Shown one piece after another: positions 2,992 through 62,534 of a DNA stretch of 64,000 nt. The translations under genes were made by a program, and so were the position numbers. How positions within the stretch are numbered: position 1 is the stretch's first letter; each line of letters begins with the position of its first letter. Under the pieces are notes generated by a model. That model made no database searches. It saw only the letters and a program-made list of their open reading frames with translations, and was not told where the DNA came from. The stretch is from positions 1 to 64,000 of IMG/VR virus record IMGVR_UViG_3300027542_000004, one strand, 5' to 3'. The stretch is from a virus. Taxonomy: Duplodnaviria; Caudoviricetes.

Positions 2992-3076
2992 GATGAGCCA
3001 AGAGAGGCAGTCCTTTGGCGAAAGCCATAAACATCAACATTCTAACGCCCGGTTTATGCAAGCAGCCGGGCAACTT

Positions 3077-3200
3077 GAAGACATAGCGAAAATTGGTAGG
3101 CGCATCACTTATTCAACATAAAGCCCGTAGTCGGGAGGTGCCGAGTGGATAAGGAAGTATGGTAGGCGATACAATGTGGGTTCGACTCCCACTGTCTTCA
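3077..3200 (+). ncRNA. tRNA-like RNA with expanded anticodon arm
   Basis: Acceptor GAAGACA/TGTCTTC+A, D arm GCG..TGGTA..CGC, T arm GTGGG-TTCGACT-CCCAC; ~70 nt between D and T arms. Confidence 0.65.
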
Positions 3201-3250
3201 CTAATGCAAGGCCGGAAGCAGTAAGACGGCATTAAAAAACATTCTTCATT

Positions 3251-15733: not shown

Positions 15734-16471
15734 ATGCTTGACGGCATAAAGCTCCCAGAATCGGTCATTGCCGAAATGGAAAAGCGAGGGATAAGTGCAA
15801 ACCCCATACCCATAAAGCCGATGATTGACACCGGCATCCACTTCAAGAAGCGCGAACCAATGCGCGAGCGTGAGTTATCTACGGAAGAATTTCTGAATCT
15901 TTTTGAACGTCAGGAATCCTTGAGAATGGCATACATCCCTCATTTCATAACCCAATGCGTAGTCTATTATCTGGACTTGCTTGTAGCGTATGCAAGGGAT
16001 AACCGACTTTCTGATTACAAGAAGCAGACACGTAGGCTAAGGGAAATAAAAGAAGAATATCTCACGGCACTCAAACATGAAATGCCGACTCATGTTTTTC
16101 AGAAGTTTCTTGACCAGCGCGATGAATACCTTGCAAGTTGTGGAGCTAATCTGAATTTGATGTATTTCACGTTCGGAAACCAGATTCTCAAGTATCACGG
16201 GCGCATTGAACACGAAAGTATCTTCTGCTATGCCAATATCATAGTCGCTTTCATAGACTATGTAGAAGACTTTGACCGACAGGTTAACAAGCGAATTGCT
16301 GAAAAACTTGGGATGCCTTGTCGGAATCATGGGGATGCAAGACTGACAGCTATCAAAAGTGTTTGTATGGCTATCAAGAATCAGTATCCCATAAAACCTA
16401 ACGAGCAGACTAACCTCTGTGTAAACGTGATGGCAAATAAAGCCAGCGCAATGATAAATGATATGTTATAA
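15734..16471 (+). CDS. Hypothetical protein
   Basis: Long ORF in operon. Confidence 0.7.
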   Translation: MLDGIKLPESVIAEMEKRGISANPIPIKPMIDTGIHFKKREPMRERELSTEEFLNLFERQESLRMAYIPHFITQCVVYYLDLLVAYARDNRLSDYKKQTRRLREIKEEYLTALKHEMPTHVFQKFLDQRDEYLASCGANLNLMYFTFGNQILKYHGRIEHESIFCYANIIVAFIDYVEDFDRQVNKRIAEKLGMPCRNHGDARLTAIKSVCMAIKNQYPIKPNEQTNLCVNVMANKASAMINDML

Positions 16472-17235: not shown

Positions 17236-17309
17236 GCCGTGAATAAAAGTGTCAGGTCAAAAGATCTTAAAGAGTGAATAAGAGTTAAAAGTTTTATTCG
17301 CTCGGCACT

Positions 17310-30685: not shown

Positions 30686-31021
30686 ATGAAACTGATAACA
30701 AAAGCACTTGAAAAGACCTTTGCAAAATATCCCATGTATTCGCAGGATGGCAAAGGCAACGATGCGGTAGTAATCGCAAAATTCTTTCTGCCGGGTAGCG
30801 GCTTCACATGGTACGTCACAGAAGCAGAAAAGCAGGCCAACGGCGACTACATGTTCTTTGGCTATGTAGAGGGCTTGGATAGCGAGCTTGGCTACTTCAC
30901 ACTATCGCAGCTTCAAAACGTGCGCGGTCGCTTTGGCTTGCGCGTTGAACGCGACATGTATTTCAACAACGGCAAGACCACACTTGCTCAAGTGAAACGC
31001 GAAAACGAAATGGCATACTAA
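30686..31021 (+). CDS. DUF2958-family protein
   Basis: KFF.P....TWY..E...FFG.V.G...ELGYF.L..L...VERD.YF. Confidence 0.85.
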   Translation: MKLITKALEKTFAKYPMYSQDGKGNDAVVIAKFFLPGSGFTWYVTEAEKQANGDYMFFGYVEGLDSELGYFTLSQLQNVRGRFGLRVERDMYFNNGKTTLAQVKRENEMAY

Positions 31022-31755: not shown

Positions 31756-31828
31756 CGCGGGTTGGAGCAGTTGGAAGCTCGCCAGTTTAACTTGCTGGAG
31801 GTCGTCGGTTCGAGTCCGACACCCGCTA
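31756..31828 (+). tRNA. Initiator-like tRNA body with AAC anticodon (reads GUU)
   Basis: C1/U72 mismatch, GCGGGT/ACCCGC stem, A73, D stem GAGC/GCTC, anticodon arm CCAGT-TTAACTT-GCTGG, T arm GTCGG-TTCGAGT-CCGAC; CCA not encoded. Confidence 0.88.
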
Positions 31829-31856: not shown

Positions 31857-32228
31857 ATGAAAAAGTTAACCCTACAAATTGACAAAAAGTGCTTTCAGGC
31901 AATTCTGAAAGGCGAGCAGAAAGTCGAGCATCGGAACGTGTATCCCAATAACGCCAAGAAGTATGTCATCGAAGAAGACAAGACTGATGAAAACGGCGAA
32001 GCCATCACGGTTGTAACACCGGTTCACTACGATGCCCTCACCCTTATCAATGGTCGCCGCAAGGATGCGCCCCGTCTGACCGTGGAGGTCGTATCGGCTG
32101 AATTTGTCGTACTGACCGACGAAGACGGCAATGATTTGACCTTTGAAGAGAATGGCGAAGTGTACTATGTTTGTCAGGTATGGTACACCCTCGGAAAGGT
32201 TCTTGAAACCGCCAACATCAACGAATAA
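31857..32228 (+). CDS. ASCH/PUA-like domain protein
   Basis: LTLQI.K..F.AIL.G.QK.E.R motif. Confidence 0.7.
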   Translation: MKKLTLQIDKKCFQAILKGEQKVEHRNVYPNNAKKYVIEEDKTDENGEAITVVTPVHYDALTLINGRRKDAPRLTVEVVSAEFVVLTDEDGNDLTFEENGEVYYVCQVWYTLGKVLETANINE

Positions 32229-32255
32229 TCATTAACCCTTTAACACTATAAGTGA

Positions 32256-32456
32256 GTTAAACGTAGAATTGATAACAACTATGGCCCCCGTCGGAACATG
32301 AACGGTGCCGGTGTCGGTGGCCGACTCGTAGCCCGTCGCACCCCTGCGGGCGTAGTTGCTGGTCGTAGCCAGCTCGGAAATCGTGAACAGCGACGCGCTG
32401 ACCTCCGTGCGGCCTTTGCAAAAGAGATTCGCGCCGCTGGTGGAACAACCGGCTAA
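32256..32456 (+). CDS. 66 aa Arg/Gly-rich protein with proposed GTT start (absent from ORF track)
   Basis: TGA-GTT-AAA opens VKRRIDNNYGPRRNMNGAG...GGTTG*; fills the gap between ASCH and PAPS-reductase genes. Confidence 0.65.
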   Translation, partial: VKRRIDNNYGPRRNMNGAGVGGRLVARRTPAGVVAGRSQLGNREQRRADLRAAFAKEIRAAGGTTG

Positions 32457-34668: not shown

Positions 34669-34674
34669 TAGCGA

Positions 34675-35370
34675 GTTAAAAAGCCACGTAAGACAGATTA
34701 TAACGCGAGAGTCACAAAGGCACTCAAGGGAAAGGGCGTACCTCACCTTGAAGAGCCGATGTACCGCGTATCCGCGTCGGCTTTTACAAAGGCTATAAGA
34801 CGCGGCAAGGCATCGCAAGGCAGGAACGGCTGGATGGTTGACCTGCATAGCAAAAGCGAATACAAGCGGATGCGATGCTTTCTTACTCCGGACGGAAAGA
34901 CAGGTGTAGCGATAAAACGCGATGGGGATGTAGTGTCTGTATTCTCCACCAGCGGAAAACGAGGCGCAATGGCAAAAATCATACCGTTTGCGGTCGCTAA
35001 TGGTGGTCGCAAACTGGATTGTTATGCTTTCTCGGATGGCCGCAGTTCACTTCACAACATGTACGGAAGATTCGGCGCAAAGGCTCACGGCAAAATGACC
35101 TTTGACCCGCAATATAATCCTGTTTTCCAACGCACGGCGCAGGCCAATCCCGGTATGCGCAGACCCTCTCATGTCGTGGCGATGACGCTGCCGGGCAGTC
35201 TTGCCGGTGTCATGCGGGCTTACAACGCTGACAGGAAGATTGACCTTGGGCGCGTGAGGTCGTATAATGATTACGACAAGATGATGGATGACTTTCCGCG
35301 CATCTTGCACTACGCGGAAAGTCAAGCGGTGTCAGAGGCGCACTTGGCGGCGGTAAATAACCAACCCTAA
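34675..35370 (+). CDS. Basic protein with GNAT-like domain; proposed GTT start (ORF track starts at ATG 34759)
   Basis: TAG-CGA-GTT-AAA adds 28 in-frame codons; DGDVVSVF...GG.KLDC...Y.RFG resembles a GNAT fold. Confidence 0.65.
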   Translation, partial: VKKPRKTDYNARVTKALKGKGVPHLEEPMYRVSASAFTKAIRRGKASQGRNGWMVDLHSKSEYKRMRCFLTPDGKTGVAIKRDGDVVSVFSTSGKRGAMAKIIPFAVANGGRKLDCYAFSDGRSSLHNMYGRFGAKAHGKMTFDPQYNPVFQRTAQANPGMRRPSHVVAMTLPGSLAGVMRAYNADRKIDLGRVRSYNDYDKMMDDFPRILHYAESQAVSEAHLAAVNNQP

Positions 35371-38241: not shown

Positions 38242-39699
38242 ATGAATAACTACTTACAGCAAATCTTAACCTATTTCCGCAACCTCACGCTAAATGCGTC
38301 CGGGGTTAGCCGCGACCTGTATCAGCTTTTGCAGGATAAGGACATCAGCCGCGCATTGGATATGCTCCAGAACCGCGATGATGAAGTTGACCAAGCAATC
38401 AAGGAGTATAATCCGCAGACGCATGACGTGATGAAACGCCCCAACAAATTCCGTAAAGGCGATGACCCCTATATCACGGAAAAGTTGCCACGCACACGCG
38501 CCCGCTACATCAACGACATCGAGCTATTCTTCTTGCTCGGCAATCCTATTGAATGGAAGAAAGAAGAGGGCGACGATGAAGCCTTTTCGCTATTCACAGA
38601 TTTTCTGGAAGAGCAGCACTTCAATTCACGCATCCGTCAGGCGAAACGACTTGCCGGCGCGGAAACCGAGTCAGCCCTTATCGCGCACATCTACCGCGAT
38701 GATGATACAGGCGAGCGTCGCGTCAAGCTGAATGTATTGGCGCGTTCCAAAGGCTATCGCCTGCGCCCACTGTTCGACACCATCGGCAACATGACCGCCT
38801 TTGCATACGGATACGTGACGAAAGAACATGGCCGCAGTATTCAGCACTGGGATTTCCAAACACCCAAAATCCTTGCTTACTGCCGTAAGGCGCAAATCGG
38901 ATGGGAAATCGAAATCTATCCCAATCCCACCGGCAAGATAAACGTCATCTACTTTCAGCAGCCAAAGGCATGGGATGGCGCGGAAGCCCGCATCAACCGC
39001 GAGGAGATGCTTGACAGTAAGACCGGCGACACCAACAATTACTTTTCCGACCCCATCGCCGCCGCCACTGCCGACGTCATTCAGACCATGACCGACCCCA
39101 ACAAGCCCGGAAAGCTCATTCAGCTTACAGGCGAAAAGTCAAGGTTTGAGTACGTCAACCCACCGCAGGCATCGCAGACACGCGACGCGGAAAAATCCGA
39201 CCTTTCAAAGAGCATCCTTTTTGATACCTACACCCCGGATTTTGACACCGAGGCCATGCGTGGCTTCGGCACGCTTTCCGGTGTGGCAATCCGCAACGCT
39301 TTCATTCTTGGCTACATCAAGCGCGACAACCGCAAAGAAATCTACGATGAACTTGTGGGCCGTTTCCGCAATATCGTTATCGCCATACTTGCATACGAGC
39401 ATCCCGATAAGAGAAAAGCTCTGGAGTCACTCAAAATCAAATTTGAATTTGCGGAACCATTCGCCGATGACAAGCAGGCGAAGTGGCAGTCCATCGCAAG
39501 CCTGTATCAAGCCGGTCTGATTTCGTTGGAAACCGCCGTGACCATGTTGTCGCTGACCGATGCACCAGAAGAAGAAATCGCTCGCCTCCTCGCGGCTTCC
39601 GCACAGAAGCAACAGCAGGGTCAGCAGCCTTCCGCAAACAAAGAAGACAATCCGGCACAACCCCCTGTAAATATTCCGCGAGAACCTATATCAGCATAA
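38242..39699 (+). CDS. Portal protein (SPP1-like)
   Basis: Follows TerL; 485 aa; LSGVA and G.ISLETA motifs. Confidence 0.85.
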   Translation: MNNYLQQILTYFRNLTLNASGVSRDLYQLLQDKDISRALDMLQNRDDEVDQAIKEYNPQTHDVMKRPNKFRKGDDPYITEKLPRTRARYINDIELFFLLGNPIEWKKEEGDDEAFSLFTDFLEEQHFNSRIRQAKRLAGAETESALIAHIYRDDDTGERRVKLNVLARSKGYRLRPLFDTIGNMTAFAYGYVTKEHGRSIQHWDFQTPKILAYCRKAQIGWEIEIYPNPTGKINVIYFQQPKAWDGAEARINREEMLDSKTGDTNNYFSDPIAAATADVIQTMTDPNKPGKLIQLTGEKSRFEYVNPPQASQTRDAEKSDLSKSILFDTYTPDFDTEAMRGFGTLSGVAIRNAFILGYIKRDNRKEIYDELVGRFRNIVIAILAYEHPDKRKALESLKIKFEFAEPFADDKQAKWQSIASLYQAGLISLETAVTMLSLTDAPEEEIARLLAASAQKQQQGQQPSANKEDNPAQPPVNIPREPISA

Positions 39700-39854
39700 T
39701 ATCTGCCATTGTTGTCATATCTGGATGCGTCACGTCTGAGTTAAAGGCGTGGCGCATTGTTTTACGCTATCAGCGCAAAATCAGCGCGTTAAAGCAAACA
39801 CTTTTATTAACAATAGTTAAAAGTAAGTATTTACTTTAATATTTTCGCTAAAAT

Positions 39855-43788: not shown

Positions 43789-45690
43789 ATGGCATCAACT
43801 CACTTCATAATATACCACAAGCAGCATGAAGACGAGGGCATCGTACTTGACGGCTTCAAATGCGCTTACAAGGGCGACAAAGATGATATGGCAAGAGTCT
43901 ATCGTGAATTTTTCAACAAGGCTAAAAAGCTCGTTGAACTGGGACAGGCAACAGACCTAAAAGAAAGTTATGACGATGATGGAACGCTTTCTTTCAAGTT
44001 TACCCGCAACGGTATCGTGATGAAGACTTTCTCATGTGAACGCAAGCGAGCCGCATGGCTTCTCGCATAATACACCCGGTTATGACATCAAAAGAGAAAA
44101 TATACGCGCAAATCCTTGAAACGCGGAACGCGATTGACAAGCTGAACGGCAACGCACCCCGTTACGACATCGACAAGTGCCTACGCACCAACTATGCGCA
44201 GACACACACAAGGGCAGAACTTAATACAGAACTGGGCATCGCCCAATCCTGCCTACGGAACACCCGGAGCAAAAAGGCGATTGAAAAATGGTACGGCACA
44301 CCCGCCGGCATCGCCTACCGCGAAGAGCGTGAGGCCAAAATCAAAAGCCTGCGGCGCGAAGTCTTGAACACCCACCGCGATACGACAAGCGACGTGCATC
44401 GCTTCATCTATCAGCACCTCGGCAAGCAGTGGCGTGTGCGCGTCATCGGCGAAAGAGCCATGACGATAGAACTACTTAACAAGGTCGGAAAGAGCCAATT
44501 CGGATACGACATTGAGTTTTACTACGGCCACGAAACATGCGACCCGGATAAGTTTGAAATCAGTTGCTCAAGTGTCGGCGGCTATGACCCAACGCAGGAC
44601 TCGCGCAGGCTTGACTATTTCATCGGCCTGACCACGCTATCAAAGTACGACGTGGCTACTGAACTGAAAAGCCTCTTGAAGTCTTTCTCGGATTATTGTT
44701 ACCGACAGGGCAATGAAATCTACCGACTTGAAAACGAACTTGAAAACCCACCTTACAATGGCTAAAAAGAAAGAACCGGTATTATGCTACTTTCATTTCA
44801 TGTATAACCAGTGGAATGAACAGACGGCACAAAAGGTATTTGCAGACGCTTCGTGCGGATGGCAGTACCTATGGGATAAATGGTGCCGCTTATGCGATGA
44901 CTATGGGATGTATGGTGCAATAACAATGTTTTACACTGAGAGTCTTGACGGCAATCTTCAAAAGATGCTTGCAGACGCTTCAAACGAATACTACAATGGA
45001 AAATAACAAACTACCCCAGATTGATTACAATCAATTTTGTGGTGATACACATATCACCACAAAGGATATGATGCCTGAACTTGTTGCCTATTCTATCCTA
45101 TGGCACAATATGGGCTACGGAAATGACCCGGTGACACAGACTGAAACATCACGCGCTCATGTGCTTTGTCTGCCTTTCGCCCTAAAGATACGCGACAGAC
45201 TGCGTGAAGATGGCAGATGGCCGGAAGATAAGAATGTAGAATACACAGGTATCATCATATCGATACTGATGATTAAGGCTGCCGGTCTGACCCCAGAGAA
45301 ACTCAAGATGCTACGCGATGTTATCACTGATGAAATCTTTAGAGCCGGTATCTTCTGATGATGTTCAACGAAAGAAAACCTATCACAACGCTTGCAGGGG
45401 TGAAAGCCTTTGCAAGCTATCTCTTCTTTGACCTTGCGACTGCCTTTCATCCTGATGATGACTTCACGGAATATGTCAAGCATGAAGATGGCGGAGCTGC
45501 CTTTGCATCGGTCAGGGCTGAAAGATTGAATCAAAGAATGTCGGAATGTCGCCAAGTGTGCGATGCCGCAGGTGTCGATATATGCGAGCAGATGGGTGTT
45601 GCATTAGATTATTTCAATGCGATAGCATCCGGGGCAACTCCTGACGAAGCAAGAAAGGCCACTTATTTTGATTTTGACGGCTCGCAATGA
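43789..45690 (+). CDS. Array of five hypothetical ORFs (43789-44070, 44082-44765, 44758-45006, 44996-45358, 45358-45690)
   Basis: Overlapping or coupled ORFs. Confidence 0.65.
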
Positions 45691-50064: not shown

Positions 50065-51339
50065 TTATTGTTCAGAAGTTATTTCCTCATTATCAATGGT
50101 CAACGCGCAGAAGCCTTTACAAGCTCCACGGAAACCATTGTGGTATTCTTTGGCAGTCATACGCTTCTTGTTTGGCAACTGCAAAATATCAATCGAAAGC
50201 AACATATCCTGACAGGCGACCATCAGTTTGCCATTCTCCCAGAACCATTCTCCGGGTGCGCGGAAGCCGCGAGGAATGTCAGTAAGACTTGCCTTGTGAA
50301 TCTTCACATCGGTTGCGGAATCTGCCTCAAGCAACCTTACCGAAGTCCATGCAGTCGGCACTGACCCTGCGATAGCCGGGGTCTTTGGATATTGTTCGCC
50401 ACAAATAACTGATGAATGGGCGCGTATGAAGTTATGAACGACTTCTGCGGAATCAGTCCAACGGATAAAGGCATCATTGCGGTAGAGCTTGGGCGCATGG
50501 CTCGGTTGAAAGAAATCGCATATAAGTTCTGACTGCGGAACTCCATTGCACGAATGACCAATACGCTGGATTGCATCATCCATCATATCCGCACCGAAAT
50601 TGCGAAGTCTGATATGCACTTCTTCCGCGCTTTCTTCCGGGCCTATGTAGATTCCGAGGTTGTTGATGATTTTGCCTGTATCCACACCCTTATCGATTAC
50701 GAAAGTGGTGATGCCGGTCATCGCGCTTCCGTCCTTGATTGCGGATGTGATAGTGGATGCGCCCCGGTACATTGGAAGAAGCGATGAATGGAGATTGATG
50801 ACTCCCCATTTAGGTATGCGGAACAATTCAGATGGTAATATGCAGTATTCAACCACAACTCCCAACGTGGGATTCAGATTGCGGATTTTTTGAAGAAAAG
50901 ATTCTGATTTAAGTTGAAGATGCGATGGCTGATATACAAGAAGACCTGCCTCTTCCGCATAAACACTGACAGGTGATGGGCAACACTTGTTTCCGCGACC
51001 GCAAGGCTTATTCTCCATAGTCACGACAGCAGCCACATCATATCCCTTTTCAACGAGCATCTTTAGAGTCGGCACAGCGAAATGTCCGTTTCCGAAAAAT
51101 ACAATCCTGATATTATTCCGATTCACCGGCTTTTCTTGGTCATATTCGGGATAAGCCGATATTGCGTCTTCCGGAACAATGCTATATCCATCGGCCTGAT
51201 TGACCTTAACTAAGTAATTGCCATCTTCATCCGGGCAAAGGATTCTGCACGGCACGAAAAACTGATTTTCAAATTGGTCGCCGGCGCAATGCCCAACCAC
51301 ATTTACCAAATGACCAACGCGGTATCTTGGAGCTTTCAT
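50065..51339 (-). CDS. fmt: Methionyl-tRNA formyltransferase homolog with N-terminal extra domain
   Basis: IVFFG...FAVP.L, VVT...KP.GRG, INLH.SLLP.YRGA, G.DTG, APK, C-terminal LQLP.KKRM. Confidence 0.88.
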   Translation of the reverse strand: MKAPRYRVGHLVNVVGHCAGDQFENQFFVPCRILCPDEDGNYLVKVNQADGYSIVPEDAISAYPEYDQEKPVNRNNIRIVFFGNGHFAVPTLKMLVEKGYDVAAVVTMENKPCGRGNKCCPSPVSVYAEEAGLLVYQPSHLQLKSESFLQKIRNLNPTLGVVVEYCILPSELFRIPKWGVINLHSSLLPMYRGASTITSAIKDGSAMTGITTFVIDKGVDTGKIINNLGIYIGPEESAEEVHIRLRNFGADMMDDAIQRIGHSCNGVPQSELICDFFQPSHAPKLYRNDAFIRWTDSAEVVHNFIRAHSSVICGEQYPKTPAIAGSVPTAWTSVRLLEADSATDVKIHKASLTDIPRGFRAPGEWFWENGKLMVACQDMLLSIDILQLPNKKRMTAKEYHNGFRGACKGFCALTIDNEEITSEQ

Positions 51340-51605
51340 TTTGATGAACCGGTCTGGATGTCGATACGTGCGCCGCACTGCGGACAGATGATGATAGCGG
51401 AATTTGGCTCAAGGTAATCTGTGAATAAAGAAGATACCGGCACTTCCAGCACTTTTGCAATTCGCTCAAGCGTGGATATGTTAGGATTGCCCTTTTCATT
51501 AACGATGTTGCCGAGTGTCTGAGGGGTGATTCCCATCTTTTCCGCGAGGCTTTTAAGGGTCATGCCCTTAGCAGCGACAATGTTCTTGATTCTGAATTTT
51601 GCCAT
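51336..51605 (-). CDS. XRE HTH regulator with zinc ribbon, coupled to fmt
   Basis: GMTLKSLAEKMGITPQ...NP.ISTLERIA; CPQCG; ATGA overlap with fmt. Confidence 0.88.
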   Translation of the reverse strand: MAKFRIKNIVAAKGMTLKSLAEKMGITPQTLGNIVNEKGNPNISTLERIAKVLEVPVSSLFTDYLEPNSAIIICPQCGARIDIQTGSSK

Positions 51606-61430: not shown

Positions 61431-61445
61431 AAACCGAGTATCTGA

Positions 61446-62534
61446 GTTAAACAGTCATTCTATTTCGATTACGCGCAGAAATACTTCCCCGGCCTCGTTC
61501 TGGCCGTGGTTGAACGTCTGAACGAAAAGCGCAACAACTCCGCGCAGACGTATCTCTACAAAGAGAAACTTCGCCCCCAGTTCTCGCTTGATGGTCGCTG
61601 GGCTTCCATTCTTGCCGAATACACCCGTGTAGCCGCCGACGTTGTGGCACTTGACTCCGAGCTTCCGCTCAAGAGCCGTGACACGCTGGAGGTTGCTTCC
61701 GGCACTATCCCCAAGATAGGTATGAAGCTCTACCTGACCGAAAAGCAGATGAAGGACGTTGATTCGATGATTGCACAGGGTCTTCCCCTTGAAACCATCA
61801 TCAACAACATCTTCGCCGACACCCCCCGTTGCATCGAGGGCATCTGGGAGCGCATCGAAGACATCTTCCTTTCCGAGCTTTCGTCCGGCGTGGGCATTTC
61901 CGAACGTAACAACGGCACCGGCGTGCGCATCAACATGAACTTCTATGAGGCCAATCAGTTCCTCGTATCGGCTCTGTGGAGCGCAACTACCGCCACACCG
62001 CTTGACGACATTCAGAAAGTCGTTGACAAGTCCATCGAAGACTCCAACACCATCATCGACGCATACGCCGACGATACCGCCCTCCAGCTTCTTTACAAGA
62101 ACGGTCAGGTGCGTGCGCAGTTTGCCTTTGACCAAGGCATCGCCATGACTGCATCAACAGCCATCCCCGTGCTTGACCTTTCCAAGCTCCAGCAGCTTTT
62201 CCTCACCAAGTGGAACATCCGTCTGCACCGCGTTTCGCGCCGTGTGAAGACCGAGCTTAACGGAGTTAAGCAGAACCACAACCCGTGGAAGAAAGGCACT
62301 ATTACCTTTGTCTGCGATGAAGAGCTTGGCTCGCTTGTATGGACTAACGTCGCCGAAGTCAACCGCCGTGTTGATGGTGTAGTCTATCAGGTAGCCGACG
62401 AATACATCCTTGCAAAGAAGTATTCCAAGACAGACCCCCTCCGCGAGTTCACCGCTTCCGAGGCTATGGTTGTCCCCGTGTTGAACAACGTTGACCGTAT
62501 CTATACGCTCGACTCTCAGACTGTTCAGGAATGA
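61446..62534 (+). CDS. Major capsid protein; proposed GTT start (ORF track uses GTG 61506)
   Basis: ~362 aa in head operon; frame opens at TGA-GTT-AAA 15 nt after the previous stop. Confidence 0.8.
   Translation, partial: VKQSFYFDYAQKYFPGLVLAVVERLNEKRNNSAQTYLYKEKLRPQFSLDGRWASILAEYTRVAADVVALDSELPLKSRDTLEVASGTIPKIGMKLYLTEKQMKDVDSMIAQGLPLETIINNIFADTPRCIEGIWERIEDIFLSELSSGVGISERNNGTGVRINMNFYEANQFLVSALWSATTATPLDDIQKVVDKSIEDSNTIIDAYADDTALQLLYKNGQVRAQFAFDQGIAMTASTAIPVLDLSKLQQLFLTKWNIRLHRVSRRVKTELNGVKQNHNPWKKGTITFVCDEELGSLVWTNVAEVNRRVDGVVYQVADEYILAKKYSKTDPLREFTASEAMVVPVLNNVDRIYTLDSQTVQE

Follow-up and report, generated by a model that had tools for sequence, protein, structure and literature searches.

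The 64,000-nucleotide (nt) stretch analysed here (the window), which makes up the opening 64 kb of one Bacteroidota phage contig, 96,654 nt long (G000; IMG/VR record IMGVR_UViG_3300027542_000004), carries a tRNA that by its build is of the initiator type and has the valine anticodon AAC, and several phage genes appear to be started with it at GUU codons preceded by the bases GA. We lean, though not strongly, towards a five-base start signal, GAGUY, that extends the pairing between tRNA nucleotide 37 and mRNA base −1 (nt37:−1 pairing). This reading is carried by the type of the tRNA, the occurrence of GTT exactly at positions where homologous genes have ATG, the covariation of anticodon and start codon among relatives, and the invariance of GA and its specificity for these starts, all of which were established by comparison, as was the lack of conservation of the 3′ half of a longer match of 8–10 nt between tRNA loop and start sites that a preliminary description of this DNA had put forward (Table 1).

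Numbered from 31756, the tRNA has the anticodon stem CCAGU/GCUGG, the closing pair U31·G39 and the loop U32 U33 A34 A35 C36 U37 U38; nt 30–39, at 31785–31794, read GTTTAACTTG, as the preliminary description had it. Position 1:72 is unpaired (C1×U72), as in initiators, and the D stem contains A11:U24, the pair that by rule marks initiators, elongators having Y11:R24. A11:U24 was present in 18 of 18 aligned family members (for those found by pattern it was fixed by the search pattern), in the cultured phage BS-TP2 described below and in host initiators. The features of an elongator tRNA-Val, namely a paired 1:72, a purine at 37 and Y11:R24, were all absent, and the resemblance to tRNA-Val was limited to the anticodon and A73. 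Also absent were the three consecutive G-C pairs 29–31:39–41 of initiators, A29-U41, G30-C40 and U31·G39 standing in place of the GGG/CCC run, and the CAU anticodon within a CUCAUAA loop (here UUAACUU); the missing run and the presence of U37/U38, at which the Rfam consensus has A in both positions, had been pointed out before. Like the tRNA-fMet of Bacteroidota hosts, the phage tRNA combines a 1:72 mismatch with A11:U24, A73 and near-identical D and T arms, the comparison being with initiators of Bacteroides, Prevotella and Chryseobacterium genomes that contain related prophages. The differences are AAC for CAU, U37U38 for A37A38, and U31·G39 with mixed pairs where the host tRNA has a G-C run; the host initiators from three Bacteroidota have the loop CUCAUAA, A37 A38 and adjoining GGG/CCC or GG/CC pairs. 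In E. coli genomes the window tRNA matched tRNA-Met genes best, and the median number of matching places in a genome was four, which we take to be the copy number of the E. coli initiator tRNA, and a Megablast search of the named phage collection with the tRNA gave no match.

Table 1. Positions of the tRNA, the GTT-start genes, their putative start signals and other features; coordinates refer to the window unless stated otherwise.
Feature	Position	Strand	Basis or remark
Initiator-type tRNA, Val anticodon AAC (C1×U72, A11:U24, A73)	31756..31828	+	ARAGORN; Rfam RF00005, 48.6 bits
tRNA nt 30–39, GUUUAACUUG: G30, U31, loop UUAACUU, G39	31785..31794	+	counted from 31756
U37 U38, complementary to A(−1) G(−2) of the start sites	31792..31793	+	host initiators have A37 A38
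Putative GAGTT start signal, small Arg/Gly-rich gene (GTT 32256)	32254..32258	+	
Gene for 66-aa Arg/Gly-rich protein, GTT start	32256..32456	+	first codon follows anticodon
Putative GAGTT start signal, 231-aa gene (GTT 34675)	34673..34677	+	
Gene for 231-aa protein of unknown function, phrog_2563	34675..35370	+	first ATG 28 codons past GTT
Putative GAGTT start signal, major capsid gene (GTT 61446)	61444..61448	+	
Major capsid protein gene, phrog_29, PF03864	61446..62534	+	family matches, start alignment
Tail-tube-like gene, GTT at contig position 64260	just past window end		start alignment
Fmt-like formyltransferase (Formyl_trans_N + Formyl_trans_C)	50065..51378	−	TIGR00460, 189 bits (cut-off 201.5)
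GAGTTAAA copy, non-start: loop of 14-bp hairpin, then U-rich stretch	39738..39745	+	fold
GAGTTAAA copy in intergenic promoter-like stretch, then only 12 open codons	17282..17289	+	position

To place this tRNA among its relatives, a family pattern was used in which the anticodon was left free and U31–U33, U37, U38 and G39 were fixed. It matched at least 89 viral contigs, from which 87 usable loci with 28 distinct tRNAs were obtained, and all 18 of the matches in the genome collection were in Bacteroidota. Among the family matches listed, the anticodons were GAC, AAC and, once, UAC, with no others. U37U38 is close to universal in the family: together with a valine anticodon it was found in at least 89 viral contigs, G37A38 in one, and U37 with a base other than U at 38 in none. 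An alignment of 18 members gave a cloverleaf in which 12 of the 20 pairs were compensated, including all four upper anticodon-stem pairs, and in which columns 1 and 73 (C×U, C×A, C×C, A×A or U×C) were unpaired in the consensus fold; the weak closing pair U31·G39 was kept in 17 of the 18. The one aligned member without U31·G39, which is also the single family member found without U37U38, lies at 838–912 on the minus strand of locus L132 (contig G011) and is a tRNA-Val(GAC) of the initiator type in which G37 A38 follow the anticodon and the closing pair is G31-C39.

All through the family, a small gene coding for an Arg/Gly-rich protein was conserved some 0.5 kb 3′ of the tRNA, with a first codon that changed along with the anticodon. 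Of 111 tRNA loci, in which a few contigs are represented twice, 94 had the small open reading frame (ORF) downstream when GAGT plus any of T, C and A was accepted at its start, with the anticodon–start combinations GAC–GTC (78), AAC–GTT (14), UAC–GTA (1) and GAC–GTT (1). At locus L150, where the backbone is of the GAC type and the anticodon is AAC, the small gene has a GTT start. The only UAC member (L100, 4118–4191) is accompanied by a small gene starting TGA GTA, that is, with a third valine codon as start. This covariation indicates that the tRNA reads these valine codons as starts and, as far as sequence comparison goes, settles that members of the family would use GTT, GTC or GTA as start codons.

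The three sites quoted in the preliminary description, TGAGTTAAAC at 32253–32262 and at 61443–61452 and CGAGTTAAAA at 34672–34681, are by the same kind of comparison real starts. In distant homologues of the capsid and tail-tube genes, the very codon that is GTT in this clade is ATG. Homologous starts were judged site by site, as an all-against-all ORF comparison was noisy, with off-frame ORFs matching too. The capsid frame opens with GTT directly after an in-frame TGA, the first GTG lying 20 codons and the first ATG 92 codons further in. Codon 1 of the capsid gene was GTT in 10 of 16 related loci and ATG in five distant homologues (49–64% identity), locus L016 being alignable only from residue 3, and the residues following codon 1 were conserved (MEKSFYFEY versus VKQSFYFDY); a search of the named phage collection with the capsid region returned one match, to an unannotated record. 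For the tail-tube-like gene, 80 loci were compared, of which 10 had NGA GTT and 70 had ATG at the equivalent position, and in the related phage G002 an in-frame TAA directly precedes CGA GTT. The homologue of the 231-aa protein in phage G001 aligned from residue 1 (41% identity) and likewise has the start AGA GTT. In the small gene, the codons between GTT and the internal ATG varied synonymously (CGT to AGA, CCC to CCG), several homologues had no alternative start at all, and the protein matched no Pfam, PHROG or NCBIfam family.

To assess the bases next to the start codon, contexts located by protein homology and not by motif were used; the rows of the 111-locus search had GA as a condition and are no test of it. 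GA was present at −2/−1 in 19 of 19 unique small-gene contexts (a twentieth row, from G001, has ATG), in 11 of 11 genome loci with a match, in all four capsid contexts, in both contexts of the 231-aa gene and in all five of the tail-tube gene, placing A(−1) opposite U37 in every homology-defined context. Orthologues using ATG did not have GA, their bases at −2/−1 being CG, TA, AG, CT, CA, TT, AA or AT, and GA preceded ATG in only 12 of 308 ORFs from four of the phages. Outside these two positions conservation was lower: −3 was T in 28, A in 9, C in 6 and G in none of 43 contexts, and positions −4 and beyond varied between genes. The preliminary description had named the retention of the loop in homologues that lose the flank as an outcome that would speak against pairing beyond the triplet; such loss was seen at −3 and from +4 to +7, and not at −2/−1.

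The flank could in principle match by chance and shared descent, with only the GUU triplet being of consequence. The number of motif copies fits this explanation: GAGTTAAA occurs five times on the plus strand and never on the minus strand, in the window and in the whole 96,654-nt contig alike, against 2.29 copies expected from shuffles, and because 7 of 100 shuffles reached five or more, the count alone is not significant. Many of the contexts are, moreover, copies of one ancestor. The placement of the motif is nevertheless not due to chance, as three of the five copies lie exactly at the opening of a conserved reading frame after an in-frame stop. GA was also kept across three anticodon lineages and in four genes unrelated to each other, with −3, −4 and +4 to +9 varying, it was gone whenever an orthologue uses ATG, and at the background of 3.9% (12/308) its presence in four independent gene families has a probability of about 2 × 10−6. 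We regard chance and descent as a very improbable explanation of the flank.

The starts with ATG carry a flank of another kind, with T at −1 in 48% and at −2 in 32% of cases (n = 158), which complements A37/A38 of the host initiators. Judged from these sequences, each class of start carries a flank matching nt 37/38 of its own initiator tRNA (GA with UU, U-rich with AA), and it is possible that the U-rich flank of ATG starts is a general signature of extended pairing in Bacteroidota phages. Looked at phage by phage, T was the commonest −1 base at the ATG-start ORFs of G000, G001, G002, G005 and G006, and TT was the commonest −2/−1 pair before ATG in G005 (23/57) and G006 (23/68).

Several points weigh against the pairing of a five-base signal with the tRNA. 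G(−2) was invariant and never A, which pairing alone does not explain because A would pair better with U38, and U38 normally contacts nt 32 and so may not be free to pair. At −3, nine of the 43 contexts have A, which is unable to pair with G39. The only tRNA without U37, that of L132, offers no identifiable GTY-start gene for a compensatory comparison; across its entire contig (G011) no gene without a canonical start, no homologue of the small gene and no identifiable GTY-start gene was found. The contexts are related by descent, so that their counts overstate independence, and real replication amounts to four gene families and three anticodon lineages; the ATG background, for its part, was obtained with a crude ORF caller, which begins each ORF at the first start that is canonical. 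Within genes, too, GA-GTT is present in frame (6 cases in 127 ORFs), and GA is thus not sufficient for a start. Depletion of the signal within genes relative to synonymous-codon shuffles was weak and was matched by control 5-mers, which reached ±3: GAGTT gave z-scores of −2.07 (all frames) and −2.39 (in frame) in G000 and of −1.42 and −2.43, respectively, in G001, whereas in G005 and G006 GAGTT was not depleted and GAGTC was (all frames, −2.04 and −2.95), GAGTC being depleted in G000 as well (−2.51).

Some of these points would be expected if GA were selected but had a reader other than the tRNA loop, such as the E-site region, initiation factor 3 (IF3) or a phage factor, for example the Arg/Gly-rich protein. 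The invariance of G(−2) despite A being the better partner of U38 favours such a reader, as does the −3 position, which is never G but often A and in this resembles a sequence preference more than pairing, and the small Arg/Gly-rich gene always accompanies the tRNA. Under this explanation U37U38 would serve other ends, for instance by blocking modification of purine 37, by barring the tRNA from elongation or by letting it escape host anticodon nucleases. We know of no candidate reader of GA, and it is the flanks of both initiator classes in the same phages that complement nt 37/38 of the respective tRNA, which argues against it. Evasion of nucleases has been proposed for changes in the anticodon loops of phage tRNAs (PMC10264068), and a causal nt37:−1 effect, which speaks for the tRNA as the reader, is documented in E. 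coli (PMC10018350). A reader other than the tRNA is in our judgement a serious rival of the five-base pairing, although rather unlikely.

In its widest form, the earlier proposal made the whole loop and its closing pairs (nt 30–39) an 8–10 nt guide or extended anticodon that pairs with positions −3 to +7. Read by hand in antiparallel orientation with G·U allowed, the three quoted sites did pair with nt 39–30 as had been claimed, over 10 of 10 positions (two G·U) at both copies of the first sequence and over 9 of 10 (one G·U) at the other, and this literal complementarity, together with the retained weak closing pair, is what speaks for a guide. Positions +4, +5 and +6 could also pair with U33, U32 and U31 in 42, 31 and 35 of the 43 contexts (G·U allowed), which slightly exceeds the share of purines found there in ATG genes (0.86, 0.61 and 0.63), but such formal pairing is frequent because U pairs with both A and G. 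The downstream half was, however, not conserved: with an identical loop, the second codons of relatives were AAT, ACA, AAG, AGA, CAG, GAA, AAC and GCA, the GAC lineage having mostly GCA, and in each of the four phages looked at, no second codon is commoner in ATG genes than AAA (19/101 in G000). Position +7 paired with nt 30 in 10 of the 43 contexts and ignored the switch between G30 and C30, being G in only 3 of 24 contexts with C30, so that covariation with nt 30 was lacking. Two of the five GAGTTAAA copies, in addition, are not starts. Positions +4 to +6 form the A-site codon, where the next aminoacyl-tRNA has to be able to bind, and the U-turn of the loop is made at U33. The comparative sequence data thus largely refute the guide, which we think hardly likely to be correct; what survives of the extended-anticodon claim is the match beyond the triplet at −2/−1.

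Taken as a five-base signal read by the tRNA, the observations suggest the following course. A phage-borne copy of a host-type initiator tRNA would have changed its anticodon to AAC and positions 37/38 from AA to UU; it would probably be charged with valine and formylated by the phage Fmt-like enzyme, and in the ribosomal P site it would start at least four phage genes at GUU, those for the small Arg/Gly-rich protein, the 231-aa protein, the capsid and the tail-tube-like protein. At the signal G(−2) A(−1) G U U, A(−1) would pair with U37 and G(−2) might wobble with U38, and a pyrimidine at −3, present in 34 of the 43 contexts, may add a pair with G39. The downstream AAA(C/A) would be an ordinary A-rich second codon, read by the next tRNA and not by the initiator. 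The added pairs could make up for the lack of a G-C run and for an A/U-rich codon–anticodon helix, and with them starts could be easier to tell from internal valine codons; that the flank distinguishes starts from ordinary internal valine codons is plausible, if hypothetical. A stronger version, in which a dual rewiring (CAU to AAC, GAC or UAC, and AA to UU at 37/38) and a co-evolved GA create a virus-private start with a helix of five or six bases, falls in our estimate just short of an even chance. If it is true, extended-anticodon pairing in initiation would for the first time be backed by compensatory evidence from nature, and the design of orthogonal start codons would gain a ready rule.

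Extended nt37:−1 pairing was reportedly described for Chlamydomonas chloroplasts by Esposito et al. in 2003. In E. coli, the A37G and A37U variants of tRNA-fMet favour mRNAs with a complementary −1 base (Hollerer and Jeschek, NAR 2023, PMC10018350), and the phage case resembles this in that the base 3′ of the anticodon faces the base 5′ of the start codon, here U37 and an invariant A(−1). It differs in being natural, fixed in a family of phage tRNAs and coupled to a changed anticodon, and in that the flank comprises two bases (GA), perhaps three, and is invariant with pairing presumed, whereas E. coli shows a modest preference (PMC10018350). Initiation at GUU has been engineered in E. coli with an initiator tRNA carrying AAC, i-tRNA(AAC) (bioRxiv 10.64898/2025.12.21.695813; further work in 10.1101/2021.05.25.445580 and 10.64898/2026.04.16.719103). 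As in the phage, an initiator body with AAC starts at GUU, with valine or formyl-valine in the engineered system, whose bottlenecks are charging by valyl-tRNA synthetase (ValRS) and formylation by Fmt, which fits a phage with an Fmt-like gene of its own. The phage tRNA differs from the engineered one in its U37U38, its U31·G39 pair, the lack of a GGG/CCC run and the GA before GUU. In the engineered tRNA only the anticodon is said to have been changed, so that A37/A38 and the three G-C pairs would remain. The start context of Bacteroidia is Kozak-like, with A at −3, −6, −12 and −13 (Baez et al., NAR 2019, PMC6847099); it shares with the phage signal that bases just upstream of the start tune initiation in a phylum that does not use Shine-Dalgarno pairing, and differs from it in that position −3 of the GTY starts is T (28/43), C or A and is followed by an invariant GA, which the accessible part of that paper does not describe. 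A literature search of limited scope found no description of a natural phage Val-initiator tRNA or of the GA flank. For the choice of start sites without Shine-Dalgarno pairing in Bacteroidota, two initiator tRNAs in one cell are a natural experiment on the extended-anticodon idea, and a GA-GUY rule would aid the design of orthogonal initiation systems, so far laboratory constructs only.

The Fmt-like gene of the window codes for a protein with about 90 extra N-terminal residues, and its product is, on sequence grounds, the probable partner of the tRNA. The gene was present in the AAC-lineage phages G000, G001 and G002 and was not found in G005 and G006, which are complete GAC-lineage phages, or in G011; if formylation is needed, G005 and G006 must therefore rely on the host enzyme. 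Among the relatives is BS-TP2 (L153, PQ571275.1), a cultured, prevalent temperate Bacteroides phage, in which a GAC tRNA lies at 2501–2573 with no annotated feature beneath it, and in which the small gene (3024–3218) starts TGA GTC, its annotation beginning 11 codons later at an internal ATG. Gene finders miss or truncate these GTY-start genes. The main text of the BS-TP2 paper mentions neither the tRNA nor start codons (PMC12694917). With this phage and its host, the claim can be tested at the bench.

In the window, as throughout the family, the tRNA is followed (31857–32456) by two small genes, the first coding for a phrog_625 protein, which is annotated as an ASCH-domain protein in BS-TP2, and the second for the Arg/Gly-rich protein of 55–66 aa, which might be part of the initiation system. 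In three near-identical relatives, ARAGORN reported, some 4.5 kb downstream of the Val-initiator, an odd further 'tRNA-???' whose anticodon has two bases (L018, 4627–4697; L019, 3942–4012; L020, 8358–8428), which is missing from the window.

Further possible GTY starts were considered. The sites 2231, 10751 and 50840 of G005 were rejected, as they were unconserved in G006/G007, one of them lay in a terminator-like hairpin, and an ATG was close downstream. Positions 30686 and 31694 of G005 and 22521 of G007 are GTY-start candidates that were left unverified, and for the GA-GTT candidates at 15837 in G002 and at 44501, 57486 and 89368 in G001 no homologue confirmed the frame, so that they were left out of the counts.

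As to the two GAGTTAAA copies that do not open a conserved frame, the one at 17282 is probably not a start. The copy at 39738 was unconserved, G001 having GTGTT and G002 an indel at this place. It lies in a 14-bp hairpin (39724–39757) that is probably a terminator by its predicted fold: the 71-nt stretch folded at −25.4 kcal/mol (z = −3.1), and a gene block ends at 39699. A terminator pattern scan did not flag this hairpin, which was revealed by folding.
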